A DNA stretch of 35,264 nucleotides from a virus: IMG/VR virus record IMGVR_UViG_3300009702_000012, positions 1 to 35,264 of that record. One strand, 5' to 3'. The notes under the pieces were generated by a model that saw only the letters and a program-made list of their open reading frames with translations, was not told the DNA's origin and ran no database searches. Each line of letters opens with the position of its first letter. Positions within the stretch are counted from its first letter, which is position 1. This document shows positions 11,125 to 33,531 of this stretch, one piece after another. Made by a program: the position numbers and the translations under genes.

Positions 11125-11344
11125 CCGCGAATACACGGCAAATAAAGCCTATTGGATAGCCAAAGAGCATCACCAACGGATTATTATCGAGAACATTGAT
11201 AAGGCCGCACAGGACGGCAAAATGAGCATCGAATTCAAGAGATTAGGCGACGAACACGCCGAATACCTAACCAGCAAAGGGTTCAAGATTATCCAGAGAG
11301 GTGACACATATGCGGTATCCTGGGATATATCCAAAACTTCATAA
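11108..11344 (+). CDS. Hypothetical early protein (78 aa), paralog of 10427..10723
   Basis: Shared C-terminal motif ending in (I/V)SW(N/D)..K(T/S)S. Confidence 0.6.
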   Translation: MDTKSSREYTANKAYWIAKEHHQRIIIENIDKAAQDGKMSIEFKRLGDEHAEYLTSKGFKIIQRGDTYAVSWDISKTS

Positions 11345-11567
11345 TCTAATAGGGCAAGTTGCCGCCAAACTCCATAATCTAAATGAAGATGCTTATCAAG
11401 AAGCGGAGATAGGGCTGTGGAAAGCAGGTATCCCAGAAGATGCCGAACCTACGGCCCTAATTCGCACCATTATCCGCAACTCTATTATAGATTGGATACG
11501 CAAAGATTATAGAAGTAGGTGGGGAATTCGTCAGGTCGAGCAAGAAATCCAGAAACGCAGAAAGTGA
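11301..11567 (+). CDS. Sigma-70 region-2-like protein lacking region 4 (85-88 aa; start GTG 11301 or ATG 11310)
   Basis: NEDAYQEAEIGLWKA...ALIRTIIRNSIIDWIRKDYRS matches the region 2.1-2.4 pattern (D..QE....LW.......W....i.rN..iD..R). The protein ends about 20 aa later. Confidence 0.65.
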   Translation: MTHMRYPGIYPKLHNLIGQVAAKLHNLNEDAYQEAEIGLWKAGIPEDAEPTALIRTIIRNSIIDWIRKDYRSRWGIRQVEQEIQKRRK

Positions 11568-15976: not shown

Positions 15977-16330
15977 ATGCTAACACCACGAGACACCCAT
16001 TATTTAGTCGGCGCCACAGAAGAACAGCGTAAAGAATACTTGCGCCTGCGTTCCAAAGGTGCGTCAGAAAACTGGGCGTCTATGATGGCCTTTCGAAGTT
16101 GCCCTACTGTGCGTGTTCAGCACGATTTTTATGATACCGCTCTTGGATGTATGGTTTCTGGGAAAAATGACCAGGAAAAACGCGTAAAAGAACTGCGCGC
16201 CCGTGGTTATGATGTATTGCCTAAAAGGGAAGGTATTGAAGCCGCCCGAGCAAAAGAAAAGCCCAAGATAACCAATAAGCATACCGAAGAGTTGAAACGT
16301 ATTATTAAGGAAGAAACCTATGGCGAGTAG
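15977..16330 (+). CDS. Hypothetical protein (117 aa)
   Basis: ORF between the hairpin and the portal-like gene. No motif recognised. Confidence 0.6.
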   Translation: MLTPRDTHYLVGATEEQRKEYLRLRSKGASENWASMMAFRSCPTVRVQHDFYDTALGCMVSGKNDQEKRVKELRARGYDVLPKREGIEAARAKEKPKITNKHTEELKRIIKEETYGE

Positions 16331-18149
16331 AAACACGCGGCGCCGCATAGCAAAGTTTTATAGTAGCATAGCGGCCAGATGGGACAGTGTTTTATCATAT
16401 ACCGAAAAACACGAGAATTATCGACGGTGGATAGAAGACGCCGAAGAGTGCTATGGTTTTTATCACGGAGTAGATGATGATAACCCAGGCAGATTTTTTG
16501 GCGTAGGATTGCGCGACGAACCAGAGATGATACGCACCAACCCGTTCAAAGTAACAGTTAATAAAGTATCGGAGTTTGCGCGCATCGTCGAGCCAGAACT
16601 GTATAACCGAGACCCGGTTGCTACGGTGTTGCCGCGCCGAACATCCCCAGCGGGCGCAGACCAACTATCCGAAATCCTGGAAGATGTCCTTTCCTACTAT
16701 ATGGAAATGATGGATACTTTCGCAGAGCGGCGAGCGGCAATTAAAGATGCGCTAATAACTGGAAGGGGCATAATCCATAATAAGCTGCTAAAATCTCCAT
16801 TTATGCCTATTGAAGAACACGTCTCCTATAAAGACTTTATGTGCGACCCAGATGCGCGCCACTACAGAAACATTACTTGGATGGCCCGCAAACATCAAAC
16901 GCCAAAAGTAGAACTTATCAAAATGTTCGGGAATAAAGCCGACCGTTTCTTCTCCAATAAATATACGCCGAATGAGCTTATTGAATGGTATGAGATTTAT
17001 GTTAAAGGCGGCATCTATGCTGGCCTAAATAATGAAGATACTGACATTGAGTTAGTCGAAAAGTTTGAGGATAAGTTTGGCACCAATGTAAAGATTTCTC
17101 TTATCCGCGCGCCAACCGCCGAAAGAAATAACGTCGATTATAATGAACACGTTTCCAAGATTGGCCCATACATCTTAGATATTGGGGATTGGGACATTCC
17201 ATTTTATGAGAATGTCGAGCAGCGCAACGCGTGGCCATTTACGCTCATTGACCTATATCCCAAGACGGTCACTGTCTATCCTATGTCGCCCATCAAACCG
17301 GCTCTTCCAGAACAGCGAGCCATCAACTGGGCGTTTATCTTCCTCCTAAATGCTATGCTAAACACTTCGCGTGGTATTATTCAACTACATCCAGACGTTG
17401 AAGAAGAAGATATTGAGCGTATCAAGAACTCAATGAATTTCTCTATCATTGCGGGAAATGAAGCGTTCCAAGAAAGTTTCAAGAAACTATCGCTTAAACA
17501 GGATAACTCTTCTCTTTGGAATGAGTTTTTTATGATAAGTAATATGTTTGATATGCGCGTTGGCCTAACAGATATGCGAAGTGCCATTTCTGGTGCCGAA
17601 GCACGTAGCGCCACAGCCACTCAATCCAAAGAACGCATCGCCAATAAAACTGTTGACGCTTTCTTTTCCGTAGTTACGCGCGCTTTCACCGAAACCACGC
17701 GCAAACTGGCGTTTACGCTTCGCACGCTTTCTTCGACCAAAGACATTGAAAGCATAGTTGGCCCTGAAGAAGCAATGTTTTGGGAAGAGTATCATTCTTA
17801 TTATAATGAGAACCCCATCTATGATTTAGATGTAACCATCTGGGCTGATGGAATGAGACGGCCAAATAGGAGCCAAATGGCACAGGAGAGTTTCACGCTA
17901 TTCGAGACTGCTGCGCAGATTGGCGGCCAACTCCAAGATATAGACATCATCAACCATTATTGGGCTAACCTACATAAGAAACTTGGGATACCACCTAATG
18001 AGTTAAGGCTGTTTGCTTTACCACCGCAGCCTGCTCCACAGGAGATGCCTCCACAGGAGGCGGCACCCGCTCAGGATGACGCAGAAGCCCGCGCCGCAGA
18101 TATTATCAGCCAACTACCACAGGATGTTCAGGTGACCACAGATGAGTAG
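16320..18149 (+). CDS. Putative portal protein (609 aa)
   Basis: Size is right. The N-terminal ...ECYGFYHG segment resembles portal ..fy.G motifs. The C-terminal tail is Pro/Gln/acidic (PPQPAPQEMPPQEAAPAQDDAEARA). Lies in the head-gene neighbourhood. Confidence 0.55.
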   Translation: MASRNTRRRIAKFYSSIAARWDSVLSYTEKHENYRRWIEDAEECYGFYHGVDDDNPGRFFGVGLRDEPEMIRTNPFKVTVNKVSEFARIVEPELYNRDPVATVLPRRTSPAGADQLSEILEDVLSYYMEMMDTFAERRAAIKDALITGRGIIHNKLLKSPFMPIEEHVSYKDFMCDPDARHYRNITWMARKHQTPKVELIKMFGNKADRFFSNKYTPNELIEWYEIYVKGGIYAGLNNEDTDIELVEKFEDKFGTNVKISLIRAPTAERNNVDYNEHVSKIGPYILDIGDWDIPFYENVEQRNAWPFTLIDLYPKTVTVYPMSPIKPALPEQRAINWAFIFLLNAMLNTSRGIIQLHPDVEEEDIERIKNSMNFSIIAGNEAFQESFKKLSLKQDNSSLWNEFFMISNMFDMRVGLTDMRSAISGAEARSATATQSKERIANKTVDAFFSVVTRAFTETTRKLAFTLRTLSSTKDIESIVGPEEAMFWEEYHSYYNENPIYDLDVTIWADGMRRPNRSQMAQESFTLFETAAQIGGQLQDIDIINHYWANLHKKLGIPPNELRLFALPPQPAPQEMPPQEAAPAQDDAEARAADIISQLPQDVQVTTDE

Positions 18150-19104
18150 ATATAACACGCATACGCTCGCAGATGTCCGCCAGTATGTCTATGATGAAGT
18201 TTTAGGTGGCCGCAGCGACACCAAAGCACAGAACATCGCAGATAGGATTATTGAAGAAGCTCATTATGAAATTGCGAGTTTTAGAAACTGGCACTTCTAT
18301 AATACCACTAATCGCTCTACACTTAACCGCGCCATTACTTCTGGTATCGCAAACGCAACCGCAGCCTATACCAGCGGTAGCACCACAGTTCAATTAAGCA
18401 CAGGTGTTACGGAGTTATCCGGCGTTAATCTCTCTGGGCAGTTTTTCCAGAGTGATGCCGACGATACATTATACACCATCCAAAGCCACGGTGTTTCCGG
18501 TGGAGGCGTAACCATAACACTCGAAAGCGAGTATCCCTACGTTGGTTCGACTTCTGCCGCAAGTGGCTTTACCATCTATCAAACGGTGATTGAACTTCCT
18601 AATGATATGGACACTATGATGTTGCCTTGGGAAGATAACTTCCAATCTCCATTACAGCACATTTCTTATCCAGAGATGCTGGGACATCAACGCACCTATG
18701 GCGTTTATTTAGGCGGCCCATTCTTTTATAGTCTTGGACCAAATCCAGTGACGCATAAAGAGAGTATTCATATTTGGCCGGCACCTACTATTCAGCAAAC
18801 GATAGACATTGCTTATTACAGATTACCTACCATCCCTACTGTCTCCACAGATGTAATTGACTTCCCAGACGAGCATATTGGAGTTCTTTGGAAGGCATTA
18901 GACTGGCTTGGAGCGCGATATATCAAACTTGGCGAAAATCCCCAAGAGCGAGCGGTTCTCACCAATCAACGCTATGGCCTATTTATAGCGTCCCTAAAAC
19001 GCTGGGCCAGAAAAGATAAAAGAACCACAGATTTAGGTTATGTGGGACAGGCAGGCTCCACGTCAAAGTTCGTGGATATTAGATTAGCACCGGTGAATGT
19101 ATAA
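18142..19104 (+). CDS. Virion structural protein, possible adaptor / tail tubular A analogue (320 aa)
   Basis: Called on position only (between the portal-like and nozzle-like genes). Overlaps the portal gene stop. Confidence 0.35.
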   Translation: MSRYNTHTLADVRQYVYDEVLGGRSDTKAQNIADRIIEEAHYEIASFRNWHFYNTTNRSTLNRAITSGIANATAAYTSGSTTVQLSTGVTELSGVNLSGQFFQSDADDTLYTIQSHGVSGGGVTITLESEYPYVGSTSAASGFTIYQTVIELPNDMDTMMLPWEDNFQSPLQHISYPEMLGHQRTYGVYLGGPFFYSLGPNPVTHKESIHIWPAPTIQQTIDIAYYRLPTIPTVSTDVIDFPDEHIGVLWKALDWLGARYIKLGENPQERAVLTNQRYGLFIASLKRWARKDKRTTDLGYVGQAGSTSKFVDIRLAPVNV

Positions 19105-19391
19105 TGAAAAATAATTTTCAAGGTATGGACGCGGGCGCAGCACCGAATAGTCTTGAGCCAGGCTTCTTTCAAGAAATGGTGAATGTTGATGTTTATGTCC
19201 GTAATGTATTGCGGCCAAGATTAGGCTTTCATCGCTGCTTGCCGCTTGATAATAGTGGCGCGCTTTCTACATTAAAGCCCACCGGCTACATCGCATCAAT
19301 GTCGCCACTACGCTATGCTGGAAATGTCGGCCATCTAATCATTGATAGTAGCGGCAACATTAGGTTTTTTACTTCCCCAGGACTTGAATAA
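19104..19391 (+). CDS. Hypothetical structural-module protein (95 aa)
   Basis: TAATG overlaps on both sides. Confidence 0.5.
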   Translation: MKNNFQGMDAGAAPNSLEPGFFQEMVNVDVYVRNVLRPRLGFHRCLPLDNSGALSTLKPTGYIASMSPLRYAGNVGHLIIDSSGNIRFFTSPGLE

Positions 19392-21472
19392 TGAGTTCCA
19401 AGTTTACCCAAACCACTTACAGCCCAACTTCTATTCGGCCCACTATTGCTGAATTTGAAGAGAGTGCCTATATCGCCAATGACCGCGATAAACTGAAAGT
19501 GGTCTATGGATATAATATTTACAGGGCTTATGATGCTGGCATTGCTGATCCTGATACATTTTCGGTGGTAATCGCTGGTGGTGGTAGTTCTGCTATTCTT
19601 GGCGTTTATTATTTGCGCTATCGGTATAAAAATTCGCACACCGGCTATGTTAGCAATGCTTCAAGCGAAGAAAAGTTAGAAGTTACTGGCGCAGGCAATA
19701 AGTTACAGTGGAAAGTAACGCTATCATCAGACACCAAAGTAGACGGCATTCTATTAGAGGTTCTTATTCCTGGTTCTACCACTTGGCGACTGGTTGATGA
19801 AGTAGCCAACGCCACCGACAGTACTACCTTAAAATATGAACCTACCAGCACATTTTCAATTCCAATCACAGAATATCTAACAGAAGATACGCCCAATTCA
19901 ACGTTCCACTATGAGCCACCTGTATTTCAAAACGTGGTTTCTCACCGCGGGCGTTTATTTGGCTGTGGCGCCGTAGTCGAAAGCGGCGGAACAGCAGCTG
20001 TTGGAGGTGATGTTATGGTTAGTGGTTTTGGAACCGAGTGGACTTCCACCTATGCCCAGAGTGGCCGTCTTCTAATGTTTCCTACTATTAATGCGCGCAA
20101 CTTCATTAAGAGCGTAGATAGCCCAACTGATATTACGCTTGAAGATGCGGCAGCCATAACCACATCTGGCAACTATACCATATCTTCTATTAACCCAAAT
20201 GTTCTGTATTGGTCTAATGCTTTACTTCCTGAAAGCTGGGACACCATCAATAACTTCACCAATGTTCTTTTGAAGACCGACGACAGCCCAGTGGGAATGG
20301 AAAGTTATTATGATAATCTTCTCATATTTGGCTCTCACTCAACAGAGACATTGCTTTATACCGAAGACCCAACTACCGAAGGTAAAGTTTCGTCGGTTTC
20401 CGACAAGCGTGGTGCGGTCAATCAGGAATGCGTAGTTCGCGTAGATAATATCATTTACACGCTGGACCGTCACGGAATATGGATGTTTCGCGGTGGACAG
20501 GCCGAACACATATCTTACGCCATAGATGAGATTTTAGATGGTGTGGCTGACGGCTGGGATGGTGTTTATTGGACTGGCGCCGCTAATAGTTTTCACGGCC
20601 AGTATTACCCAAATAGGAGAGAAGTTATCTGGTGGCTGGACCTGCGCCGCACAGGAGAAAGCACCGCGGGCAACTATCGCAGCATTCATTACCATATTGA
20701 TAACCACACATTTACGCTGGGCCACTATGGTCTTGATATCAAATCTTCAATGTCTGCGCCAGACCAAAACTTGGTATTGCGGCCAGTAATCGCCAATGCT
20801 AATGGGGATTGGTTCTATTATGGAGTGGGAACATCAGAAGGCGCGCATCCTGACAGCGCAACATCGGGCTACGTTTCTTCAACTGGTCCCGCAACCACAC
20901 ACTTTAACTTTGCGAGCGGAGATGGCTCGCTCTATACATCGCGCGAAACTTTGGCTGGTGTGCCGTTCGTCATTGATGGATTTGCCAGTGGCATTATCCA
21001 AACAGTGGCAGGCACACTTATCACACCCGTAGATACACTTCCAAGTCCACCTACACCAGGAGATGTGGTTTTTATTGGCCCTATTGAAACATCGGTCACT
21101 ACTCCTGAAATTTCCATAAATGGCCCAGAGAAAGATAATCAATTTATCTGGTTCGAAATTATCCACACGCCTAATACGGTAGGAAGTATACGCGTCCAAT
21201 TTTTCGGCAACTATTCTGCGGCACCTGTCGAGATTACCACTGATAGCGCGACATTTAATGCTAATAACTATAACCTATCAATAGACAGCGCCGATTTAAG
21301 CACGGTCATCTGTAAGATTGATAGCACCACCAAAGGATATATTCGCATTCCTATTATGACGAACTATTATAATGTTATGAGTGCGAAGATTACCGCCATT
21401 GACCCAGGAGCAAATTTCCGCATTAATGCTTTTAGGTTCGTCGGTTCATCGAGTGAAGTGAAAGTAGCCTAA
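19391..21472 (+). CDS. Large virion protein, possible tail tubular B / nozzle analogue (693 aa)
   Basis: Called on position and size. Has a beta-rich segment (LLIFGSHSTETLLY...IIYTLDRHGIWMFRGG). Confidence 0.4.
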   Translation: MSSKFTQTTYSPTSIRPTIAEFEESAYIANDRDKLKVVYGYNIYRAYDAGIADPDTFSVVIAGGGSSAILGVYYLRYRYKNSHTGYVSNASSEEKLEVTGAGNKLQWKVTLSSDTKVDGILLEVLIPGSTTWRLVDEVANATDSTTLKYEPTSTFSIPITEYLTEDTPNSTFHYEPPVFQNVVSHRGRLFGCGAVVESGGTAAVGGDVMVSGFGTEWTSTYAQSGRLLMFPTINARNFIKSVDSPTDITLEDAAAITTSGNYTISSINPNVLYWSNALLPESWDTINNFTNVLLKTDDSPVGMESYYDNLLIFGSHSTETLLYTEDPTTEGKVSSVSDKRGAVNQECVVRVDNIIYTLDRHGIWMFRGGQAEHISYAIDEILDGVADGWDGVYWTGAANSFHGQYYPNRREVIWWLDLRRTGESTAGNYRSIHYHIDNHTFTLGHYGLDIKSSMSAPDQNLVLRPVIANANGDWFYYGVGTSEGAHPDSATSGYVSSTGPATTHFNFASGDGSLYTSRETLAGVPFVIDGFASGIIQTVAGTLITPVDTLPSPPTPGDVVFIGPIETSVTTPEISINGPEKDNQFIWFEIIHTPNTVGSIRVQFFGNYSAAPVEITTDSATFNANNYNLSIDSADLSTVICKIDSTTKGYIRIPIMTNYYNVMSAKITAIDPGANFRINAFRFVGSSSEVKVA

Positions 21473-22063: not shown

Positions 22064-22618
22064 ATGGCTTATGCGAGTATAGCCGCGCAACAGGCGGCCA
22101 GATTACCAAGCACCAATATTTCTTTTTTACCTACGGGCAGAAGAAGTGTTTTAAGTAGAGAAAGAAGTAATGCTGCCGAGATTAAGGCGAGAGATGATTA
22201 TCTCCGCTCTTTTTCAACGGCGCTTGAACGTGAGCGTGCGGCTGGTATTACTGGCTTTGAAGATTATCTTCGCAGTCTGCGTGGGGAGGGTAGTCCAAAC
22301 CTAAACTCAGAGTTCGTTAGTTCTCTGGTTTCACAGGCAACTAACCCCATCTATCAAATGTTACGCAGAGGTTTAAGAGATAGTTATTTAAGCGCAGCGG
22401 CCCGTGGAATGAGCCGAAACAGCGGAGCAGTTCAGGGCCGCGCCCGAGAACTTACATCGCAGGCGAATTTAGCCGCAAGCCAGGCTCGCGGACAGGCCAT
22501 TACTAACGCCACCGCACTTCAACTTCCAGCCATTCAATCACTCGCCAATTATCGCGCCACAGTCCCCATCAGTGACCCGCTGGTTAAATACACCCCACAT
22601 AACAGGGGGATAGCATAA
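22064..22618 (+). CDS. Putative internal virion protein (184 aa)
   Basis: Position is analogous to T7 gp13/gp14. Ala/Arg/Ser-rich. Confidence 0.4.
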   Translation: MAYASIAAQQAARLPSTNISFLPTGRRSVLSRERSNAAEIKARDDYLRSFSTALERERAAGITGFEDYLRSLRGEGSPNLNSEFVSSLVSQATNPIYQMLRRGLRDSYLSAAARGMSRNSGAVQGRARELTSQANLAASQARGQAITNATALQLPAIQSLANYRATVPISDPLVKYTPHNRGIA

Positions 22619-22977
22619 TGAGACCGCAACTAACAGCGCCCGTTTTTAATCTTGCCGCCATTGATGCCTACCCATTCTATGAAGCATTATACGGCGTTCA
22701 AGGCTCTCCAATCCACGGCGGTATTGCTGACCCAATACATCGCTTGAGCGTAGGAAGACCAGTTCTTTCTACCAGAGAAGCACTGAAAGAAAACCAGCAA
22801 GGCCTATCAAATATACGCGCAAGAATGCTGGCCAGTTATGCTTTTCCAGGAAAGCAAAAAGAGAAACCATCTAAACAGGAAACACCCAAGAAACCTAAAC
22901 AGTCTAAAATAAGCCCAAATGTGCTGGCGAATTTGGTTGAAAACCTGTATAAATCAATGTTCCCAGGAGTAGCCTAA
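22618..22977 (+). CDS. Putative internal virion protein (119 aa)
   Basis: TAATG coupling on both sides. Lys-rich C-terminal half. Confidence 0.4.
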   Translation: MRPQLTAPVFNLAAIDAYPFYEALYGVQGSPIHGGIADPIHRLSVGRPVLSTREALKENQQGLSNIRARMLASYAFPGKQKEKPSKQETPKKPKQSKISPNVLANLVENLYKSMFPGVA

Positions 22978-24620
22978 TGCCCTATCCAGAATTTGACCCT
23001 AATGCTATTATGGCTTCGCCGGAGTTTCAAAAAGCGGCAAATAAGTTAGCCGAAGGTGACCCCAGCAAGTTAGTCTCTGTTAGAAAATATTTACTTGGAA
23101 AACTTCAACAGCGTTATAGCGAAGATAAGAGAATGGCGGCCAAAATTCCTTTCGGCGGACAGCCTACTCTCTCAAGAAGTATGGGAGATGTGCTCGCTGG
23201 GCGGCCAGCCACCCCGCCAGCGGCAGGACCAAACCTAAATGATATTGCTGCTCGCACCCAAGTTCCTACGGCTCCTATTGATGCTGGTGCCGAACTTATG
23301 CCGCATACATCGGTGAATTATCAGCGGTTGCTTCAAGGATTGCGCGATGGAATGGATAATCAGTCCGCACTTATCGCCGCAACTGAACGGCGTGTGCTTC
23401 CAAGAGAAGTGGTAACTGACATTTCAGCCGGTGTTCCGCTACGGGCGGCTATGTCTGCCTTTGAAAAGAAGCGCACTTTGACAGGGCCAAGCGAAGCAGA
23501 AAGAATGGCTGCGTTTGGAGCGGCATTACCAGTAGAGAGACCTACTTTTGGCGGAGATAGTTTTACTGCCGAAGGCATAAGACCATCAGACCCAGGATAT
23601 TATAAGCCAAATTTGCCTAACGCAGAACCAGGTTATGCGGAATCAGATGTTAATGCTATCTTAAATCCAGCAGCACCTGTTTCACCCGAATATGCGGCAG
23701 CCAGAAAAAGAGCATTAAATATGCTGCGGCGACAGGTTCACGGTGAAGAAGTCGATAGAACACAGCGTATAGCAGATGCGGATACATTACGCAAAGAGCA
23801 AAAAACAGCACGCGATATTCAAGCAGGTATTGGTGAAATAGATAAAGTGAATATTAAAGCATTGATGGCCGAAGCCCAAAAGAACCTTAAAAAGGCAGGT
23901 GTCAATACAGAATCAGATTTAACACCAGAGCAAAAAAGAACCCAGGCTGTTATTGATAAATTAGGTATGAGAGAAGAGTTGAAAAACTTAAATCCAGACC
24001 AACCAATAGATACGCAAGAAATAATAGCGCAAAAACTTCAAGAACGCGGCGTAAGTGATAATACTGCTAAGGCATTAGAAAAAACATTCTCTACTTTAAC
24101 AGAACTTCCAAGATTTTCAGAAGATGATATGATGACTTTTCAACGTCCAAATAGTGGGGAAAAGGTATTAGAGTTGGTTCAATCAGGAAAACCAATCGAT
24201 ACATTATTAAAGGTATTAGATAATCAAATAGGTTATAGAAGTAAATTTGCAGCACGCGGTTCCAGTATATTACCACTTATGCCATCTTATGAAAAATACT
24301 TAGAAAAAATATTATATGGCTCTACTATGCAGGGTGACCACCTAATGAAAAAGCAAATTTATCCGGCCATTGATAGGATGATTGATACTGTGATGAATGG
24401 TGGTTATTATCCAATAGAAGTTATTAGCGCTTGGAATAAAGTTGCTGAAAAAGTATTAGATGAATATCCAGATAGAGCAAAAGCAGATATTCAAAATAGA
24501 ATTCAAGACAGAATTAGATATTATTATAGCGCATTAATATCTGGAAAAATACCTTCCGCTCTTACGAAAACATCTGATGCGGTAGAAAATATCTTAAATC
24601 CAAAGAAGCAAAATGCCTAA
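22977..24620 (+). CDS. Putative internal core protein (547 aa)
   Basis: Position is analogous to T7 gp15, directly before the giant ORF. Confidence 0.4.
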   Translation: MPYPEFDPNAIMASPEFQKAANKLAEGDPSKLVSVRKYLLGKLQQRYSEDKRMAAKIPFGGQPTLSRSMGDVLAGRPATPPAAGPNLNDIAARTQVPTAPIDAGAELMPHTSVNYQRLLQGLRDGMDNQSALIAATERRVLPREVVTDISAGVPLRAAMSAFEKKRTLTGPSEAERMAAFGAALPVERPTFGGDSFTAEGIRPSDPGYYKPNLPNAEPGYAESDVNAILNPAAPVSPEYAAARKRALNMLRRQVHGEEVDRTQRIADADTLRKEQKTARDIQAGIGEIDKVNIKALMAEAQKNLKKAGVNTESDLTPEQKRTQAVIDKLGMREELKNLNPDQPIDTQEIIAQKLQERGVSDNTAKALEKTFSTLTELPRFSEDDMMTFQRPNSGEKVLELVQSGKPIDTLLKVLDNQIGYRSKFAARGSSILPLMPSYEKYLEKILYGSTMQGDHLMKKQIYPAIDRMIDTVMNGGYYPIEVISAWNKVAEKVLDEYPDRAKADIQNRIQDRIRYYYSALISGKIPSALTKTSDAVENILNPKKQNA

Positions 24621-27600
24621 AACATTTCTAAATAACCCAATTTCCATAGAAGAAGCATCTAAACCTGAGCCATTTCATTATTCTCAGGGCTTCTTAGGTA
24701 ATTTAGGTTTCGTCTTAAATAGACCCACTAAAGGTGTTCAAGATTTACTTTCTGGACACCCTGGCCGTGCCGTAGCCAATATAGGACAGTTCTTCGCTGA
24801 ATTAGCAACACTTGGTTATGCCCCTAATAATCTTTTGATAGATGAAAAGGATGACCAACAGTGGGGATTGCTTGCCGACATCTTTCTTGACCCACTTCTT
24901 TATGTGGGACTGCCTACCAACGCCATTGAAAAGGTGGGCGTTAAAACGGCAGGTATGCTTGATAAAGTATTGGCTGCAGGAAGCAAAGGCATTGAGAGTG
25001 TCTCAGAAATCAAGAGAGGCTTACAGGTTGCTTTACAGGACACAGCTCACGCATTAGTCAAATATCGCACGCCGCAACTTGCTAAAAGTTTAGGGATTGT
25101 CGGCGAAGATACGGCCAAAATGGGCGCCAAAGTTGCCGAACTCCTAAAAGAAGATGTTGATAGACTTTTCAGAGAAGGTCTCAAGCCTACCGGTAAAGAA
25201 TTAGTAAGCAATGTGGCTGAGAAACTTTCGAGTAAAACTGCTATTCCTGGCATTATCAAGCCAGCATTTCACGCTGGCGGCACCACGTTTGGTTTCGACC
25301 AGATTGCGGCCCTTCTATCACTTGACCTATTTGGCTTGGTGCCTAAACTAACTGGTGGAAGAAGTTTGCGCTCTGCGCTATCTTGGCTGATAACACCATT
25401 AGAGTTCAGCAAAGAAGTTCCTATTCTTGGTAAAGGTATTCCTGTTGGAATTGCTTCTGAACCCATCGCTAAATTGCTCGGCAAAACAGGAAAAGTTGCT
25501 GGAAAAATACCTACTGCTGGACCAGCATTGGAAGGCTTATTTAGCGGCCTATCTAAATACCTGAAAGTTTTAACCACAGCCCGAAGTGGCCCTGGACGCA
25601 TCGCCCTATCTGACTTTACATATAATTTGCCCCCATTCCTTCTAATGAAGAATATAGTGGCTGGTCCCATAGGGCGCGCAACAGCAAAAGCATTCTCGAA
25701 GAATAAAGCAGAGACTGAGATTGGAAACAGGCTGACACACCGCTACTTCATTGACTTAGCAGGCTCTCACCAGCAGGCACAGCGTGATTTAATTGAGGCT
25801 CTTACTATTGACGGCAAAGTTATTCCAGTTGAAGAATATCAAAAATACGCTGATATTTATGGTAAAAAAGTAGTTGATTTCTTACAGCAAAAGATGGATG
25901 AAGTAGGTATTAAGCAGACCATTTATACGCCTGAAATTGCTAATGAAGCCAACCGAATTGCTATGGAAGGTATGCCTGAATGGTTTGGTAAAGCAAGAAG
26001 TAAAATTGAAAGAAAACTTCAAGGTTTGGCTGGTATATCTCAAAAAGGCAAAGCACTCCAAGGATATTCTTTTAATGATAATGGTAGAGTTATTATTAAT
26101 GCTATTAATGATGCGATTGATGTGGCTAAAAACCCAGCAGGACGCATCAAACATACTTTCATTAATGAACTTTTGGGAAAGTATTTAGATGCTGGTCAAC
26201 CCGTTACAGCGTTTAGATATTTTACGCTCCACGAACATCCGTTTGAACTCTTAAATGCCGAGGGTGAGACCATCTCCGCCATAAAAGGCCTGAATGATTT
26301 AGTTAAACACGAGATACAGAAGATTGCTGATAAATATGGTGTTAAACTTGAAGAGTTAGGAAACATTGGTCCTATTATTGAGGAGGAGCAGGCAGCGACA
26401 TTAATGCGCACATCGGTTAATAGAAATAAAGATATAGCGCTAAATAGATTAATCGATGAAAGCAAAGATAAACTTGGCACCAAATTATCATCTGCTATTG
26501 AGGCTTGGCGTTTTAATGTTCCGCAACTTCAAGAAGGCGCGCAAACTTTCGAACCAACTATGGAAAGAGTTGGTAGCATCATAAATGACATCAAAGAAAG
26601 AGCGGATGTGTTGCGTGACCCAGAAGTGGCGCGGCATTTCCAGCAAAGATTGGCTACTGCGTTAAGAGCCACCGATAAGCCAGAACTTGCTAATTTAATT
26701 GAAAATATTCCAGACGGCAAAACTTTATTAAGTAAAGTTAAAGAGATGGAAGCCGAACTTCCAAATCTTGGCGAGCAGTTAAATATTACTGCCCCAGCCA
26801 AAAAATTAACATTAAAAGATAAAGAAATTCAGTTTAGAAGTAAAGAGCATAAAGGCCCTGGCACACCACATTTCAACGCAGGAGATGCCGAAGTTTGGCG
26901 TGAAGCCAATGATGCGCAGAAATACGGCGATTCTTTTCTATCGAATAAGATTTATGATGAGTATAAGAAAGCAGGAATACACACGCCAGAAGGTAAAACC
27001 TATGGAGAGATTACGCGAGCCACAGCGCGTCTTGCTGAAATCATCAAAATAAATAAAACACTATCACAGGAACCATTCCAGCATGTAGCCGAAATGGATA
27101 GCCTAACCAGCATTATCCGCGATGGTATTAAGAAGTTAGTTGGTGGAGCAGGAAAAGAAACCGCAAATCTATCTAAACTGCGCGCACCGCAAGTTATTCA
27201 GGGCGAGATACGCCAACTATCAGAGGAGTATAAGGCGCTGGATAAGTTTAGCCCGCAGCGTAAAGAAATCTCCAAAAAGATAGGAGAGTTGGAACACGAA
27301 CTCAAAGACTCGATTGCGGAGCAGAAACAGGGCAAGCGCTTTGGTCCTGGCACGCCTAAATATCGGCCTGATGACTTTGAAGAAATGCCGCTGAAAAATG
27401 TAACTATTGGGATGTTAAGAAAACTGCGCGAAAATGACTTTCCATTTATAGTGCGCGTTCCAAAGGGCGGCTATGATGCGGCGCTTAAAGCAGGCGTCAA
27501 ACCAAGCGAGATGGCTCTTGAACCCATTACAGCCGATGAGATGCTGAAACTCAAGCAGACCATAATGAAACGTTTAGAGGGCAAGAAAGAAGCGCCCGAC

Positions 27601-30600
27601 CTATTTAAGAATATGAGCGGCAGAACTCTTGAAAGCAAAGCCAATAATATTAGGGAGAGACTGAATAAAACAGACTTAGGAAAGATTGAAAGAGCGCAAC
27701 TTGAAGCAGACCTAATACGCACGCAAAATGAATTAAAAGGGCGTCCTATTGACTTGAAGAAAGATTTAGAGTTTGGCGCCAAAACTGTCTATAGAGAAGC
27801 AGATAAAGCAGCGCGCGAATTATTCCCTGACGCACCCATCAAAACACTTTACCAACATCCACAGTTGAAACCACTCGGCAGAAAACTGAATGAACTTTCT
27901 GACGCTTTGGAAACTGGCGAAGAGGCCGCTGTAAATACAGCCATAGATGGTGTAAAGGCAGAAATCAAAAAACTCGGTGCTGATTTAGATAAACCACATT
28001 ATGGGCCTGGAACACCAAACGCCAAATATGTCGAGCAGAGATTAGGGAGAAAACTCAAAAAAGAAGAGAAGGCCGTCCTAACCGAAATTATCTTCCGCAC
28101 CACAGAAGGAACACCAGAAGCGATAAAGCGCGCCTATAAGAAGATTGCCGAAGTTTCAAAGACTGATATGGCGTTCGCGCAATCCCTAACTACCGAAATG
28201 GTGAAGCGTGGGCAGTTTGCCGACAAAACGCATAAAATGGCGTGGGTCAATCTTATTAGGCAAGTAGAATTGAAGAAAGCATATAAGCACGCACGCGCCG
28301 TTGAAAAGGGCGCCTTTGACCTACTTGAAAAAATGGAAAAGGATGCGGGCTTTTTCGGTCAGGCTCAAAAGAAGTTCTTTGATTATGAAAAAAGATTGAA
28401 GAACAGCGCCGAAGTTAAAAAGTATGAAAACCTACTTCACTTACGCGTTCAATCAACAGATACCGCCGCTATGCTAAAATGGGAGATGGATAATCTCGGT
28501 GGATTGCGACTATCCCACGATGTTATTTCTCATCCCTATTTGGCTGTTCAACCATTAATTGCCGGAGAAGACCTAACTCGAATGAGAAAGTATCTGGAAA
28601 CTCTCCAAGGTAAAATGGAGTATATCAACTATAACTTGGACTTGGTGCGCCGAGCAGACATAGAAGTCCGTCGCGTAGGAAGCACTATGCTTCCCGATGG
28701 TGGTGCTATTGAGCCTATTATGGGACCAACATTCCACCACACTACCAAGTTTAAGTATGTCCGCAAACAGGTCAGCGAAATTAGACGGCTGCTAAATACA
28801 TCTATCAAAAATGGTGGCTTTGGACCAACCGCAAAAATTTTAGTCAGCAAAAAAATGCAGATGCTGGAAGACTTTGAGGCTTTATTCAAAGTAGCAGTTA
28901 GAAATCGCGCAACAGCAAAAGCCGTTGAAATAATGGCGGACTATACCGATTTAGCAAAGAATGTAGCCGAGCAGTTAGCCAGAGAAGGAAAGAAATTTGG
29001 CTCTCGGGTGATTAGACCACCTTCTACTGAATTTTTGAGAGGGTTTAAGAAGTTAGTCGAAACTCCCAAACAGTCTGTTGCCGAAATGGCTAAAACATTA
29101 GCCGAAACTAAACTTCCAAAGGCTATTCAGGATGTCTTGGATAAAATCCCTGAGAAAGATAAGTTAGCAGAAGAAGCAATCAAGAGATTAAATCTTGATA
29201 AGTTGATAAAGAAAACCGACGATATTGAAGCGGCTCTTAAATCTATGGGCGTAGATGTTGCTAAAATAAGACCTGAGATGGCTATCGAAGCCGAAAAATC
29301 ATATGCTATTAAAGAAATAGAAAGAGCAATGAAGTCGGGTGATGTTGGCGGCGATTTAAGCCTGGCTATCTCTAAACGCAAGAGAGCAGAGAAAATTCTA
29401 ACCCAACTCGAAAAGGGAGGGGCGGAAGCAAGCCGTATAAGTAAGCAAAAAAGTATTATAAAAGATTTAGATGAAGAAATCAAAGATATTATCAAGTCTT
29501 CTAAATCAGGCATCCGAAAAGGCGTAGGTATTTCTCAGTTAGAAGCAATGGCGAAAGACATCAACGCATTAGAGAAAGCGGGAGATGTTGAAAAAGCCGC
29601 AGAACTTGAAGTCCACTATAATAAGTTAATCAAGTTAAGAAATGCTGTTTTTGCCAAGAAAATCCCATCGCGGTTCGTCAGAGAACAGAAGATTTATTAC
29701 GGCCTGTTTAATGAAGTAGATAATGCCGCAAATGCCGCAATACGCCGCCATCTTGAAAAGCCATTCGAGGCTATGGACGCTTTACTTGGTAAGCCAACCA
29801 CCTATCCAAAGGAAGCAATTGAAGAGTTTGCCGCCACCATTGAAGATGTAGTAGGCAAAGGTAGAAACGCTGATATTATGAAAGGTCTTTTACTTGAAGG
29901 TAAGACTGGAAGAGAATTGGCTAAAACCTATAAACTTGACCCATCAATGATAACGCGGGTGAAGAATAAGTATTTAGAAGATATTAAGTCTGAACTCTTC
30001 AAGAAAAATAATATTAGACTACGGAGAGGGGCAATCAAACCATCAACAGGTGAGTTTGCTGGCCCTAAATCCTATAAAAACCCAGCATTAGATGAAGCAA
30101 TCCATGACTTCAATAGGTATACCAACTATACCAAGAAATGGAGAGAAGAATTGCTGGCTGCCGTTAAAGATGGGACAGCCACACCAGAAGATATCAAAGC
30201 ATTCCATCAGGTTAGATTGAAGATACGGAGATTGCGTCGAAAGTTCGCTAAACACGCACGCTTTAATAACATCAAGTTAGAAACATCGCCGCGGACTATC
30301 CCTGGAAATACAGGGCCTGGAACAGCCGCAGCAAGAAAAATATCCAGTGTATCAAAACTTGACTTGCCGATGGATAGAATGCTCGAAGGATTTATTCGCC
30401 ACGAACGGGGAATAGGGATTAAAAAGCCTAATATTATTCAGCGCGGCATTGAAGCATTTGCGCGCGAATGGATGGGGCTACCATCTCTAATCAAGAGTGT
30501 TTCTATGGCGACAGCAAAAGGAGACCCAACCAAAGCAATCAAGATTTGGACGGACAGCAAATTCTTACGCAGCATCATAGAGAGTAATTTGGTTCAGCGT

Positions 30601-32007
30601 GGCGGTTTCAAAGCGCTATCAACAGTAGGCATAGGACCAATTATCTTCCCTGGCTTCCACATTAGAAACGCACTTTCGGCACCTACGCAGGCACTCTTCC
30701 ATAGGTTCGGCGATATAGAAATGGGAACACGCGCATCACTGGTCGGGCTAACTTCAGCCATAGATGGCGCAGTAGCAGTAGTCCCAGAACTCTTGAAATC
30801 AATCTCAAGTAAGTTAAAACTCAAGCCACTTGAAAAATTATTCGATTTATTAAGTAATATACGCCCAACTACTCGATTGAGTAAGTTATCAAAATTGGCA
30901 TGGGCACATTCATTTAATAAACTGGATGAACTTGAAAAAGTTAAGATTAAGCCTATTCAGTTAGAAAAGCTCTGGCAACCAACATCTAAGACGGCGGCAG
31001 GATATAAAGCAGCTGTCAAAGCATTAGAAGAAGATGGCTGGAAAATCATAGGCGGTGATATCGCCAAAAGAGAACCTTTGACTATAACCAAAAAGGTTAC
31101 CAACGGCAAAGACTTTATGGAAATAGCAGAGCAGTATGGAGTTATTGAAGGATTTGCGTCAAGCGAAATTATCACCAAACTCGGTAAACGCGTCAGTTTG
31201 GCTGGCGGAACAGGTCAGGCAGTAGAGACAGGTATGCGCCTAACTATGTGGAAACACTTTTTAGAACAGGGTATGAACCAAGTTGACGCTTCTATTTTAG
31301 TGCGAGAAATCCTATATGATTATAGCACACTTGGAAGTGCGGATAGAACAGTTCGCGCTCTATTCCCCTTTGGTAAGTTCACTATGGAAGCAGTTCCATC
31401 TGCTCTGAAAACTTTGAAAGAACGCCCAGGCATCATAAATCTACTAAGAAAGACGGTGGGCCACGGCGATAATAGCGAAATCCGTATGAAGTTTGACGGC
31501 AAAACATACGTCGTCGGCGTCTCTAACATCTTGGATACGCTGGCTATCTTTGGCTCTGAGGAGGGTGCGCGCCGCACGCTGGAAAAGGACTTTGGAATGG
31601 CGTCTCCTGTCATCACTGGGCCTATTCAACTCATAGCAGGTCGCTCATTCTGGCGGGGACGCAAACTGACAGTATGGAACATTATTGGAATGGTTCCTGG
31701 AATACGCGCCGTTTCCATAGTTAACCAACTATCAGGTGATGCTATTAGGTCAGCCGTTCAGGACACTATGAAGCGGAAGAAAGAAAGTTTTATGAAGAGA
31801 CTTATCCCGGTCCTAACTGGACTGAGACCGCGGCAAATTGACTTAAAGAAAGAAGCGTTGCGAGACATTCGCAACTATCTATATCATATTTTAGAAAGTC
31901 CTACGGAAACTGGTCTGTGGGAATATAGAAATTTGGTAACCACGGATACGGCTTCTCCCGAACTTATCCAGATATTGAAGAAATATAATGGAATGAGGAA
32001 GAAATGA
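24613..32007 (+). CDS. Giant virion-associated protein (2464 aa), putative internal core / ejection protein with an embedded HTH
   Basis: A single uninterrupted ORF, 21% of the genome. Position is analogous to T7 gp16. Lys/Glu/Ala-rich helical centre, four G-P-G-T-(P/A) motifs, and a sigma-r4-like HTH at aa 1750-1792. Confidence 0.55.
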   Translation: MPKTFLNNPISIEEASKPEPFHYSQGFLGNLGFVLNRPTKGVQDLLSGHPGRAVANIGQFFAELATLGYAPNNLLIDEKDDQQWGLLADIFLDPLLYVGLPTNAIEKVGVKTAGMLDKVLAAGSKGIESVSEIKRGLQVALQDTAHALVKYRTPQLAKSLGIVGEDTAKMGAKVAELLKEDVDRLFREGLKPTGKELVSNVAEKLSSKTAIPGIIKPAFHAGGTTFGFDQIAALLSLDLFGLVPKLTGGRSLRSALSWLITPLEFSKEVPILGKGIPVGIASEPIAKLLGKTGKVAGKIPTAGPALEGLFSGLSKYLKVLTTARSGPGRIALSDFTYNLPPFLLMKNIVAGPIGRATAKAFSKNKAETEIGNRLTHRYFIDLAGSHQQAQRDLIEALTIDGKVIPVEEYQKYADIYGKKVVDFLQQKMDEVGIKQTIYTPEIANEANRIAMEGMPEWFGKARSKIERKLQGLAGISQKGKALQGYSFNDNGRVIINAINDAIDVAKNPAGRIKHTFINELLGKYLDAGQPVTAFRYFTLHEHPFELLNAEGETISAIKGLNDLVKHEIQKIADKYGVKLEELGNIGPIIEEEQAATLMRTSVNRNKDIALNRLIDESKDKLGTKLSSAIEAWRFNVPQLQEGAQTFEPTMERVGSIINDIKERADVLRDPEVARHFQQRLATALRATDKPELANLIENIPDGKTLLSKVKEMEAELPNLGEQLNITAPAKKLTLKDKEIQFRSKEHKGPGTPHFNAGDAEVWREANDAQKYGDSFLSNKIYDEYKKAGIHTPEGKTYGEITRATARLAEIIKINKTLSQEPFQHVAEMDSLTSIIRDGIKKLVGGAGKETANLSKLRAPQVIQGEIRQLSEEYKALDKFSPQRKEISKKIGELEHELKDSIAEQKQGKRFGPGTPKYRPDDFEEMPLKNVTIGMLRKLRENDFPFIVRVPKGGYDAALKAGVKPSEMALEPITADEMLKLKQTIMKRLEGKKEAPDLFKNMSGRTLESKANNIRERLNKTDLGKIERAQLEADLIRTQNELKGRPIDLKKDLEFGAKTVYREADKAARELFPDAPIKTLYQHPQLKPLGRKLNELSDALETGEEAAVNTAIDGVKAEIKKLGADLDKPHYGPGTPNAKYVEQRLGRKLKKEEKAVLTEIIFRTTEGTPEAIKRAYKKIAEVSKTDMAFAQSLTTEMVKRGQFADKTHKMAWVNLIRQVELKKAYKHARAVEKGAFDLLEKMEKDAGFFGQAQKKFFDYEKRLKNSAEVKKYENLLHLRVQSTDTAAMLKWEMDNLGGLRLSHDVISHPYLAVQPLIAGEDLTRMRKYLETLQGKMEYINYNLDLVRRADIEVRRVGSTMLPDGGAIEPIMGPTFHHTTKFKYVRKQVSEIRRLLNTSIKNGGFGPTAKILVSKKMQMLEDFEALFKVAVRNRATAKAVEIMADYTDLAKNVAEQLAREGKKFGSRVIRPPSTEFLRGFKKLVETPKQSVAEMAKTLAETKLPKAIQDVLDKIPEKDKLAEEAIKRLNLDKLIKKTDDIEAALKSMGVDVAKIRPEMAIEAEKSYAIKEIERAMKSGDVGGDLSLAISKRKRAEKILTQLEKGGAEASRISKQKSIIKDLDEEIKDIIKSSKSGIRKGVGISQLEAMAKDINALEKAGDVEKAAELEVHYNKLIKLRNAVFAKKIPSRFVREQKIYYGLFNEVDNAANAAIRRHLEKPFEAMDALLGKPTTYPKEAIEEFAATIEDVVGKGRNADIMKGLLLEGKTGRELAKTYKLDPSMITRVKNKYLEDIKSELFKKNNIRLRRGAIKPSTGEFAGPKSYKNPALDEAIHDFNRYTNYTKKWREELLAAVKDGTATPEDIKAFHQVRLKIRRLRRKFAKHARFNNIKLETSPRTIPGNTGPGTAAARKISSVSKLDLPMDRMLEGFIRHERGIGIKKPNIIQRGIEAFAREWMGLPSLIKSVSMATAKGDPTKAIKIWTDSKFLRSIIESNLVQRGGFKALSTVGIGPIIFPGFHIRNALSAPTQALFHRFGDIEMGTRASLVGLTSAIDGAVAVVPELLKSISSKLKLKPLEKLFDLLSNIRPTTRLSKLSKLAWAHSFNKLDELEKVKIKPIQLEKLWQPTSKTAAGYKAAVKALEEDGWKIIGGDIAKREPLTITKKVTNGKDFMEIAEQYGVIEGFASSEIITKLGKRVSLAGGTGQAVETGMRLTMWKHFLEQGMNQVDASILVREILYDYSTLGSADRTVRALFPFGKFTMEAVPSALKTLKERPGIINLLRKTVGHGDNSEIRMKFDGKTYVVGVSNILDTLAIFGSEEGARRTLEKDFGMASPVITGPIQLIAGRSFWRGRKLTVWNIIGMVPGIRAVSIVNQLSGDAIRSAVQDTMKRKKESFMKRLIPVLTGLRPRQIDLKKEALRDIRNYLYHILESPTETGLWEYRNLVTTDTASPELIQILKKYNGMRKK

Positions 32008-32249
32008 TGGATTGGGTTATTCAAATTTTAGATAAGTTTGGCGTTTGGACACTGGCCTTAGCGATATCTTGGGTTATTATCTATCAAATGTATCGGCGTA
32101 TGTCAAAAGAAATATCTGATTTGCGTGCTATGATATTAGATAAAGATGAAATAATCAATATGCTTATGGAAAAGCGTATGGAAGATTTTGATAAAGCCAT
32201 TAGTTTAGCCCAAAAAGCCAAGAAAATCTTAAAAAATAATGGATTTTAG
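32004..32249 (+). CDS. Small membrane protein with one N-terminal TM helix plus coiled coil (81 aa); holin/spanin-type candidate
   Basis: VWTLALAISWVIIYQMY hydrophobic segment followed by a charged helix. ATGA overlap with the giant ORF. Confidence 0.45.
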   Translation: MMDWVIQILDKFGVWTLALAISWVIIYQMYRRMSKEISDLRAMILDKDEIINMLMEKRMEDFDKAISLAQKAKKILKNNGF

Positions 32250-32271: not shown

Positions 32272-32382
32272 ATGGAAGTATCACTGGAAGAAATTGAGCA
32301 GCGTCTCGACGAACGGCTCAAAGAAATTTTAGAATTAGAGCGAGAACTAGAAATTCTCGAAAAGGAGAAAGAAGATGAGTAG
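32272..32382 (+). CDS. Possible 36-aa coiled-coil peptide (not in the ORF track)
   Basis: GAGGAG lies 11 nt upstream. MEVSLEEIEQRLDERLKEILELERELEILEKEKEDE. Overlaps the next start. Confidence 0.3.
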   Translation: MEVSLEEIEQRLDERLKEILELERELEILEKEKEDE

Positions 32383-32716
32383 ATTAGCAGGCGCTGCTGG
32401 GCGTAAGACCGATTTCTACGGTGTAGCTTTTACGGCTGGTGCTACCAGCGGGCTATCCGTGGCTTCCGGCTCGCTTACCGAACTCACCGCTGGTCTGAAT
32501 AATAGAGTTGAGATAGCAGTTCAAAATGTAGATACCACCGATGCCATCTATATTGGATTTGATGCTAATATGGTAGTTTCGGCTGCTAATGTTGGTAATC
32601 TTTTCCGCATTGCTGCTGGCGAAACTTTTTCTTTTGCCGTAACTGAGGATGTGCCGCTTTATGGCGTAACTTTGGTTACTGGCACCACAGACACACGCAT
32701 AATGGAATTAAGATAG
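32375..32716 (+). CDS. Small beta-rich virion protein (113 aa)
   Basis: AAGGAG SD. Lies upstream of the LamG and fibre genes. Confidence 0.55.
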   Translation: MSRLAGAAGRKTDFYGVAFTAGATSGLSVASGSLTELTAGLNNRVEIAVQNVDTTDAIYIGFDANMVVSAANVGNLFRIAAGETFSFAVTEDVPLYGVTLVTGTTDTRIMELR

Positions 32717-33531
32717 TGTCTTGGCACCGCATTAGGACCAATCTGGCCCAAAAAAGAACTTCGACCATTAGACCACCATCGCCTAATAGGTTGGTGGATG
32801 TCTCAAATGGCACGCCTGCCGATGAAGCAAGTGTGAGCGGAGCGCTTGAGTTCTGGGGCCTTGGAGACCAACTGGCTCCCGAGAATTTGGGAGAAAGTGG
32901 TGTTATGGATTGGTTTGATAGTGGTCCAAAAGCACAGGATACCGCCCAACTAACAGCGGGATTAAGACCAAATGTTGCGAGCGGTCAGGCTCCAAATGGA
33001 GAAAATGCTTTATATTTTGACGGAACTGAATATCTAAATACAGCATCCGTTCTACATTCAAGTATATTTAATGGAAATGATAAACCTATTACGGTGATAG
33101 TGGCTGCGAACCCACAGAGTTTAGTGAACTCAAATTTATACGCACTGGGTAATACTGCGGCCACTACACCGTCTTTACGTTGCGGCATCATTTCGAGCCA
33201 ACTGCGTTGGTATAAAGAAGGAACCACAGCAGTTGATGTGAGAGCAGGAACGCCCACAGAAGCCAAGCACGTCTTTTCCTGGGTTTCCAGTGGCGTCACG
33301 ACACAGTTATACATAGATGGTGCCGAAGTAACAGTTGCTCCGTCAGGAAGCGATATTAGCAGTATTGCTCCCAATACTTCAACCATCGGAAGTGTTATAT
33401 TGAATAATGTTTCAAGTAATCAATACACAGGCTTCATCTATGAAGTGGCCATCTATTCAAGTGGTTTAGCGGCCTCACAGCGATTAGACGTTGAGCGTGG
33501 AATGGCCTATAAATATGGGATACATATCTAA
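32716..33531 (+). CDS. LamG / concanavalin-A-like lectin-fold protein (271 aa, GTG start)
   Basis: Shows the Laminin_G_3 pattern: ALYFDGTEYL, PITVIVAANP, LRWYKEG, HVFSWVSSGVTTQLYIDGAEV and YTGFIYEVAIYSSGL. Confidence 0.65.
   Translation: MSWHRIRTNLAQKRTSTIRPPSPNRLVDVSNGTPADEASVSGALEFWGLGDQLAPENLGESGVMDWFDSGPKAQDTAQLTAGLRPNVASGQAPNGENALYFDGTEYLNTASVLHSSIFNGNDKPITVIVAANPQSLVNSNLYALGNTAATTPSLRCGIISSQLRWYKEGTTAVDVRAGTPTEAKHVFSWVSSGVTTQLYIDGAEVTVAPSGSDISSIAPNTSTIGSVILNNVSSNQYTGFIYEVAIYSSGLAASQRLDVERGMAYKYGIHI

Follow-up and report, generated by a model that had tools for sequence, protein, structure and literature searches.

Ejection proteins of phages are often matched by size and synteny and not by sequence, and a series of small, medium and large genes serves as a criterion for their recognition (PMC8954989). 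In T7, the ejectosome proteins gp14, gp15 and gp16 are packed on the portal, ejected, and form a conduit across the envelope; gp16 (internal virion protein D) has 1,318 amino acids (aa). A second described system is the pre-ejectosome of the Anabaena cyanophage A4, available as the C1 reconstruction 9K3A (PMC12002296). Inside the capsid, a core of three layers is seated there on the portal, and its outer layer consists of five copies of gp26 in alternation with five of gp27. Both proteins jointly bind a DNA circle in a basic cleft and are covalently joined head to tail (gp27 to gp26) by a disulfide, gp25 is a capsid cement protein, and the core is proposed to be ejected and to become a trans-envelope channel (PMC12002296). 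The viral DNA analysed here (IMG/VR record IMGVR_UViG_3300009702_000012, 35,264 nucleotides, the whole of which is called the window) encodes a protein of 2,464 aa in a single open reading frame (ORF), referred to as the giant. The giant is probably a large internal virion (ejection) protein of a short-tailed phage with a P22-type portal and an SU10-type adaptor. The best-supported description is that of an extreme-size member of a widespread and unannotated family, which has a C-terminal module in common with A4 gp26. In this description the giant is an unusually large representative of an essentially ordinary kind of gene, an expanded variant of podophage ejection proteins, and reveals no new enzymatic or anti-defence system.

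The search of the C-terminal domain profile of the family against all PDB sequences gave a sole significant match, the 1,114-aa chain 9k3a_A, named 'Tail protein' (E 9.6e-5). This chain corresponds to ORF26 of cyanophage A-4L, i.e. gp26. Profile alignments with hhalign were made against an alignment of the gp26 homologues from A-4L, Pf-WMP3 and CHP58. The last 380 aa of the family aligned with Prob 97.5% (E 7.5e-12, 293 columns), the last 620 aa with Prob 98.6% (E 6e-16, 315 columns), and 36 full-length relatives, the giant being excluded, with Prob 98.7% (E 1.7e-16, 331 columns). Control alignments of gp27 and gp28 with the C-terminal module stayed below Prob 1%, and the N-terminal block of the family reached at most 3.7% (with gp27) against the gp26, gp27 and gp28 alignments. 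At the level of sequence profiles, the C-terminal ~480 aa of the giant are homologous to A4 gp26, a relationship that is remote but robust. Full-length homology to a characterised family, which the original prediction had set against its own reading, was found for the C-terminal fifth (gp26) and not for the rest of the giant.

Similar to gp26 (1,114 aa; PDB 9K2V and 9K3A; Saffermanviridae), the giant is encoded by the last gene for an internal protein, just 5' of the fibre genes. Both proteins are all-alpha, the giant by prediction, and they have the core DY...R..PF..F...P....L..P in common. However, the N-terminal residues 1-460 of gp26 have no match in the giant, which is 2.2 times longer and possesses a different conserved N-terminal block. 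The giant also lacks cysteine, whereas Cys5 of gp26 is disulfide-linked to Cys1715 of gp27. No homologues of the partners gp27, gp28 (lytic transglycosylase and M23) and gp29 were detectable in the window phage, which is of a different type from A4, without a T7-like DNA polymerase and with a P22 portal and SU10 adaptor. We also considered whether the giant corresponds to gp27 and gp26 fused into one gene, and rejected this. The DPLTY block weakly resembles a segment of gp27, but this segment is unconserved among the gp27 homologues, hhalign gave a Prob of at most 3.7%, and the claim of homology was dropped; what is left of the fusion is an analogy in size.

The relatives of gp26 and of the giant are likewise mis-annotated or unannotated. 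In RefSeq, the gp26 homologues of A-4L, Pf-WMP3 and cyanophage PP are labelled 'tail fiber protein; host specificity'. If these labels, which concern ORF26 of A-4L, ORF25 of Pf-WMP3 and the homologue in cyanophage PP, were followed, the giant, which adjoins the fibre cluster, would be an external tail component, such as a fibre, a host-specificity protein or a central tail protein. Nonetheless, cryo-electron microscopy (cryo-EM) puts A4 gp26 inside the capsid (PMC12002296), and the giant is basic, K/E-rich and predicted to be all-alpha, without the beta-helix, collagen-like or lectin modules of the downstream fibre genes. An external location is therefore very unlikely, and the RefSeq label on the cyanophage homologues is misleading.

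The family was collected with a HMMER scan of 1.84 billion cluster representatives, using a chimera of giant aa 1-620 and aa 1885-2464 as query. It comprises at least 150 representatives at E<=1e-3 (clusters at 50% identity), and those clusters whose annotation was looked up were all 'hypothetical protein'. Nearly all listed matches pair giant aa ~2165-2464 with the C-terminus of the matched protein. The matches listed are mostly 870-1,400 aa long (median 1,058), with a continuous spread from ~870 to 1,900 aa, and the giant and its homologue P0011 (2,480 aa) are the longest among the 150 best-matching representatives. These two proteins match at both ends: giant aa 23-119 correspond to P0011 residues 31-137 (BLASTP E 2.5e-8), and giant aa 1915-2459 are 30% identical over 587 columns (E 5e-67). 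The stretch of ~1,800 aa that separates the matching ends is not alignable.

The conserved N-terminal block (~100 aa) has the family consensus G.L..vL..LdRPG..VR..L.G..g.A ... DI.TDPLTY. The family-wide C-terminal module (~480 aa) carries the near-invariant motifs PxFHxRN, E..mRl..F, DYs.lS..eR..R..iPF..FT, GLP.E.L, sPllK.PlE..tGr..F.G and LTGa...sVD. Cysteine is absent from 97% of the listed family members, including both giants of ~2,470 aa. A basic C-terminal tail was found in 66% of the members, in comparison with 8% of control random 15-mers from the same proteins, and the giant has a charge of +4 within its last 15 aa. Moderately hydrophobic 19-mers (Kyte-Doolittle 1.55-1.63) are present in the giant at aa 2043-2061 and 2352-2370. 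The Cys-free family, the basic C-terminal tail and the models with helices only are traits expected of ejected proteins. Among the 36 relatives scanned, 35 have no known domain, apart from two marginal helix-turn-helix matches; the exception, P0023, carries an SLT lytic transglycosylase at its C-terminus. With P0023 excepted, the family members tested likewise gave no match to Pfam or PHROGs.

With the whole giant, Pfam, PHROGs, NCBIfam, phmmer against PDB and a word-indexed search of 5.8 billion entries returned at most the giant itself. Queried with its C-terminal 585 aa, the word-indexed search gave no match at all, the giant included. The tblastn search of the giant against 50,697 phage records detected no homologue, and a three-sequence alignment used to look for related loci matched nothing in the collections of viruses, metagenomes and genomes. 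Of the fragmentary homologues, P0010 (37% identity) is the closest; it is encoded on a contig of 3 kb (L014; GCA_022615665.1, JALAHR010000831.1) in a metagenome-assembled genome (MAG) bin of Nitrososphaera sp., and another family member is labelled Polyangia bacterium. Both are probably phage contigs mis-binned into MAGs.

The giant is a genuine gene and its frame is not an assembly artefact. The product has 274 kDa, an isoelectric point of 9.6, a net charge of +90 and no cysteine, and its ORF occupies 21% of the circular genome. An open frame of 7.4 kb is not expected by chance, since at 44% GC content the odds are roughly (61/64)^2464. The ORF overlaps the stop of the preceding 547-aa ORF by 8 nt and the start of the following 81-aa ORF by 4 nt. 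In the ENA, a contig of a second assembly differs from the window by six single-nucleotide polymorphisms over 18.8 kb; three are within the giant, two of them synonymous and one causing V2300G, and the frame is intact. The related phage contig L009 encodes P0011 at the equivalent position. The agreement of the second assembly and of the syntenic homologue confirms the frame, and with it the size, the share of the genome and the uninterrupted reading of the ORF given in the original prediction.

The neighbouring genes were also as first described: the giant is preceded by ORFs of 184, 119 and 547 aa and followed by a fibre-like cluster (Laminin_G_3 protein and repeat-rich ORF). Similar to A-4L, in which the order is nozzle, ORF30, gp29, gp28, gp27, gp26, ORF25 (gp25) and fibre, the window and L009 possess portal, adaptor, nozzle, small and medium ORFs, giant and fibres. 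The portal, adaptor and nozzle of L009 are 26-29% identical to those of the window and lie in the same order. In L015, which represents a third lineage, the SLT-fused family member comes after an SU10 adaptor, a tailspike and an ORF of 487 aa and before an amidase. Low-complexity ORFs of ~490-590 aa lie 5' of the family member in five contexts, with one small ORF in between in L015; the counterparts of the 547-aa ORF in the four other contexts have 593, 498, 490 and 487 aa. No sequence similarity was detectable among these upstream ORFs. The upstream ORF of ~500 aa and the family member look like a conserved gene pair that is recognisable by size and position only. The 547-aa product is a candidate for the medium ejection protein, and the 184-aa and 119-aa products are candidates for small internal proteins.

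In comparison with T7, the series of small (184 and 119 aa), medium (547 aa) and large (2,464 aa) proteins after the tail hub is similar, as is the basic C-terminal tail; the segments near the C-terminus of the giant are only moderately hydrophobic and may or may not correspond to the C-terminal transmembrane helices of a gp16-type protein. A common mode of action with the T7 ejectosome is presumed, namely packing on the portal, ejection, and a trans-envelope conduit. Nevertheless, PDB searches revealed no sequence similarity to gp16, and the giant is almost twice as large, which bears out its description as unusually large for an ejection-protein slot. The giant also lacks the N-terminal lytic transglycosylase of gp16, and where this activity appears among the relatives (SLT, one of the 36) it is C-terminal. 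Upstream of the giant there is no ORF with multiple transmembrane helices like gp14. The placement in the internal-virion slot was upheld by the gene order and by the profile homology to gp26, a cryo-EM-verified pre-ejectosome protein. The label 'T7-type' was inaccurate: the portal is P22-like, the adaptor is SU10-like and no phage RNA polymerase or DNA polymerase was found among the window genes, and therefore the phage is a podophage, but not of the T7 type.

As an ejection protein, the giant would be incorporated in few copies into the core of the procapsid, alongside the 547-, 184- and 119-aa proteins. Its gp26-like module would anchor it in this core, and the strongly basic helical middle (net charge of the giant +90) may fill the core volume and lie against the DNA. 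On adsorption, the Cys-free and all-helical chain could thread through the portal-nozzle channel and then refold in the envelope as a conduit extending the short tail across the periplasm and the inner membrane. Action at the membrane would be the part of the moderately hydrophobic segments and of the basic C-terminal tail, in line with the proposal for T7 gp16 (PMC8954989). The extra ~1,400 aa over the family median would represent structural expansion and not cargo enzymes.

Several points weigh against the ejection-protein assignment. We infer capsid location and ejection for a phage that is known here from its genes alone. The homology to gp26 spans a fifth of the giant and is found at profile level only. 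For aa 2150-2464, the AlphaFold2 model based on an alignment of 29 sequences is mostly helical (predicted local distance difference test (pLDDT) 72.5, predicted template modelling score (pTM) 0.47), and the Foldseek search with this model found nothing significant in PDB and did not recover 9K3A. Besides the missing homologues of gp27, gp28 and gp29, no peptidoglycan hydrolase was found in the structural block of the window phage, and T7 gp14-like proteins typically have 4-5 transmembrane helices, a number not reached by any of the small ORFs upstream. For the middle 1,800 aa there is no homologue and a model of low confidence only, and a novel fold or function may be present there.

The composition of the giant agrees with the initial description of a Lys/Glu/Ala-rich centre and more hydrophobic, Gly-richer ends. 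Between aa ~400 and 1900, K+R account for 15-23% and D+E for 10-20%, with a mean hydropathy of -0.3 to -1.0, while the more hydrophobic stretches are at aa 200-300 (+0.46), 2000-2100 (+0.34) and 2300-2400 (+0.10), with 7-13% Gly. The helical appearance of the centre was also reproduced, with low confidence, by AlphaFold2, which without an alignment predicted 67% helix and no strands for aa 700-1899 (pLDDT 45), a model too poor for a fold search. No catalytic signature had been noticed by eye, and we found none: the giant has no DxDGD (no D.D.D anywhere), HExxH or convincing Walker A motif, no Pfam match at E<=1, and no PHROG, NCBIfam or PDB sequence match.

These results bear on the proposal of the original prediction that the extra size holds undescribed takeover or anti-defence functions. 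In such a case, the giant would be injected as a polyvalent or effector cargo, and undescribed domains within its ~1,800-aa middle would give it a main role in host takeover or anti-defence. The phage has no polymerase genes, so that early functions need another source, and a middle without homologues leaves room for novelty. Additionally, when the C-module model was compared with BFVD by Foldseek, two uncharacterised proteins of phages matched (E 4e-5 and 8e-5), followed below the threshold by 'Large polyvalent protein associated domain' (LPD) proteins (E 0.09-0.5, TM-score at most 0.33). However, these LPD matches are below significance, come from a moderate model and are a lead only. The middle is K/E-rich, has helices only in its model and lacks conservation even from one giant to the other, which is an argument against a conserved enzyme. 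Only one of the 36 relatives scanned has an enzyme domain, and this is a cell-wall hydrolase (lytic transglycosylase); hence the ejection-protein assignment is supported and a hidden function is not. A simpler candidate for takeover is the sigma-like ORF in another part of the genome. An effector cargo is thus unlikely, and the proposal of takeover functions in the extra ~1,400 aa found no support in the giant or its relatives. This additional segment is the least conserved portion of the giant, resembles helical filler and is without counterpart in 35 of the 36 relatives.

Two groups of large, co-delivered proteins can be compared in this respect. The virion RNA polymerases of N4 (~3,500 aa) and of crAss-type phages (~2,200 aa) are very large podophage proteins that are packaged and ejected with the DNA, as would be the giant, and the window phage, too, is without an early RNA polymerase gene elsewhere. 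The giant differs in the absence of DxDGD or any other polymerase motif and of any Pfam or PDB match, and in a middle that is unconserved between relatives. Polyvalent proteins, reportedly described for phages and conjugative elements by Iyer and colleagues in the Journal of Bacteriology in 2017, are similarly huge and likely co-delivered with DNA, and the weak Foldseek matches point to their LPD domains. Nonetheless, the giant has no array of enzymatic or effector domains, and no LPD Pfam match was found in the giant or the 36 relatives scanned.

The middle of the giant contains three exact copies of GPGTP, for which ~0.0015 occurrences are expected from composition, and one GPGTA. GPGTP is the sole repeated 5-mer in the giant. 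The copies are encoded by different codons, and therefore it is the amino-acid motif that is maintained. The copies may be turns of a triplicated module or processing sites. In the latter case, the giant would be an ejectosome polyprotein, cut at GPGT(P/A) into separate internal proteins of ~750, 163, 220, 770 and 561 aa; the second and third GPGTP copies lie in predicted coils between helices, and the fourth copy of the motif marks precisely where the conserved C-terminal module begins. Cleavage is compatible with an ejection protein, but by a different mechanism. However, GPGTP is absent from P0011 and nearly all family members, no protease gene was recognised in the genome, and the motifs may be conserved turns of a triplicated helical module, in agreement with a weak self-similarity of the middle at aa 660-1250 (E 1e-3 to 4e-3). 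A polyprotein is accordingly improbable. If true, much of the ejectosome would be encoded as one polyprotein, the last piece of which (aa 1904-2464) would be the gp26-like module, an organisation not known to have been described for ejection proteins of tailed phages.

The two giants have near-equal lengths (2,464 and 2,480 aa) despite unalignable middles, and the chain is long and helical in a low-confidence model. This could suggest a tape-measure-like ruler or an internal scaffold, the length of which sets a dimension of the virion. Nevertheless, there are only two such proteins, family lengths are continuous from ~870 to 1,900 aa, and the near-equal length is an anecdotal curiosity. In contrast to tape measure proteins, the giant is not part of a long-tail module: the adaptor (SU10-type) and the nozzle-like gene are of the podophage kind, and no matches to tail tube, sheath or chaperone genes were found. 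A ruler is highly unlikely. Taken together, it is doubtful that the unconserved helical middle serves as a length-defined device, or that the giant is made as a precursor and processed at the GPGT(P/A) sites.

As a probable ejection protein, the giant provides a functional anchor, through a cryo-EM-verified pre-ejectosome protein, for a large unannotated metagenomic family. It would extend the size range of known non-enzymatic podophage ejection proteins to ~2,500 aa. Its modular layout, in which the ends are conserved and the helical middle expands freely, could help to recognise ejection proteins in uncultivated phages. The positions of the features are given in Table 1.

Table 1. Features of the giant and of its genomic surroundings (window positions unless a contig is named; aa numbering refers to the giant).
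Feature	Position	Strand	Remark
Giant ORF	24613..32007	+	ATG start, 2,464 aa, no internal stop
Conserved N-terminal block (aa ~23-125)	24679..24987	+	GFLGNLGFVLNRPTKGVQDLLSGHPGRA ... ADIFLDPLLY
Gly-rich, more hydrophobic stretch (aa ~200-360)	25210..25692	+	Hydrophobic segment at 225-243
Lys/Glu/Ala-rich middle (aa ~400-1900)	25810..30312	+	Weak internal repeats at 660-1250
GPGTP copy 1 (aa 748-752)	26854..26868	+	
GPGTP copy 2 (aa 911-915)	27343..27357	+	Predicted inter-helix coil
GPGTP copy 3 (aa 1131-1135)	28003..28017	+	Predicted inter-helix coil
GPGTA (aa 1901-1905)	30313..30327	+	Boundary of variable middle and conserved C-terminal module
C-terminal module common to giant and P0011 (aa 1915-2464)	30355..32004	+	
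gp26-homologous region (aa ~1963-2440)	30499..31932	+	A4/A-4L gp26 residues ~465-1036
P-x-F-H-x-R-N motif (aa 2013-2019, PGFHIRN)	30649..30669	+	Asn invariant in 36-sequence alignment
Most conserved core (aa 2205-2273)	31225..31431	+	E..mRl..w..l..G......A...Vr..lYDYs.lg..dR..R...PF.kFt....P...k.l.erPG.
Terminase_6N ORF	3399-4256		Large terminase, first part
Terminase_6C ORF	4127-5098		Large terminase, second part
HNH endonuclease ORF	5142-5759		Downstream of split terminase
DNA methyltransferases	5766-7738		D12 class and N6_N4 class, adjacent
VWA-domain ORF	8377-8880		
ERCC4 nuclease ORF	8947-9408		
Sigma70_r2-like ORF	11301-11567		88 aa
Major capsid protein	14369-15409		
Podophage neck/tail hub	16320..21472	+	Portal, adaptor, 95-aa ORF, nozzle-like; upstream of ejection-protein block
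Portal	16320-18149	+	P22_portal
Adaptor	18142-19104	+	SU10_adaptor
Nozzle-like protein	19391-21472	+	693 aa
ORFs of 192, 184, 119 and 547 aa	21472-24620	+	No Pfam/PHROG match
184-aa and 119-aa ORFs	22064..22977	+	Ala/Ser/Arg-rich; no database match
547-aa ORF	22977..24620	+	Low-complexity/helical; adjoins giant on 5' side, translationally coupled
Upstream ~500-aa ORFs	window 22977-24620; L009 8217-9998; L010 1011-2507; L013 8529-10001; L015 8100-9563		
81-aa ORF	32004..32249	+	One hydrophobic helix (aa 8-30 of the ORF); coupled to giant stop codon
113-aa ORF	32375-32716		
Laminin_G_3 protein	32716-33531		271 aa
Repeat-rich fibre-like ORF	~33.5 kb to 1328		Across junction

Bases 1-80 of the window are identical to bases 35185-35264, and therefore the assembly is circular, with a unique length of ~35,184 bp. 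Essentially all genes are on the + strand. The product of the 81-aa ORF could be a holin-like protein or a membrane partner. The portal and capsid proteins had no tblastn match in cultured phages, and IMG/VR scans queried with the giant and with the portal gave no matches. An ORF of 1,602 aa (L002 11609-16417, L004 3836-8644) was considered as a relative and found to be unrelated to the giant. It lies two genes 3' of a distant portal relative (22% identity), has no Pfam match, and encodes a large unannotated protein of the virion module.

The left half of the genome harbours a split large terminase, an HNH endonuclease, two DNA methyltransferases, a VWA protein, an ERCC4 nuclease and a sigma-70 region-2-like ORF. 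The two terminase ORFs overlap by 130 nt in different frames, which could be due to a programmed frameshift, a sequencing error or a genuinely split gene. The 88-aa ORF matches Sigma70_r2 (E 7.6e-7), and its product possibly redirects the host RNA polymerase; the VWA-domain and ERCC4 nuclease ORFs are located near it. The methyltransferase pair has a markedly lower GC content (0.34, compared with ~0.45), which suggests a recently acquired anti-restriction cassette. The fibre-like gene spanning the junction contains diverged repeats of 147-164 nt, which belong to two repeat families with five copies each.

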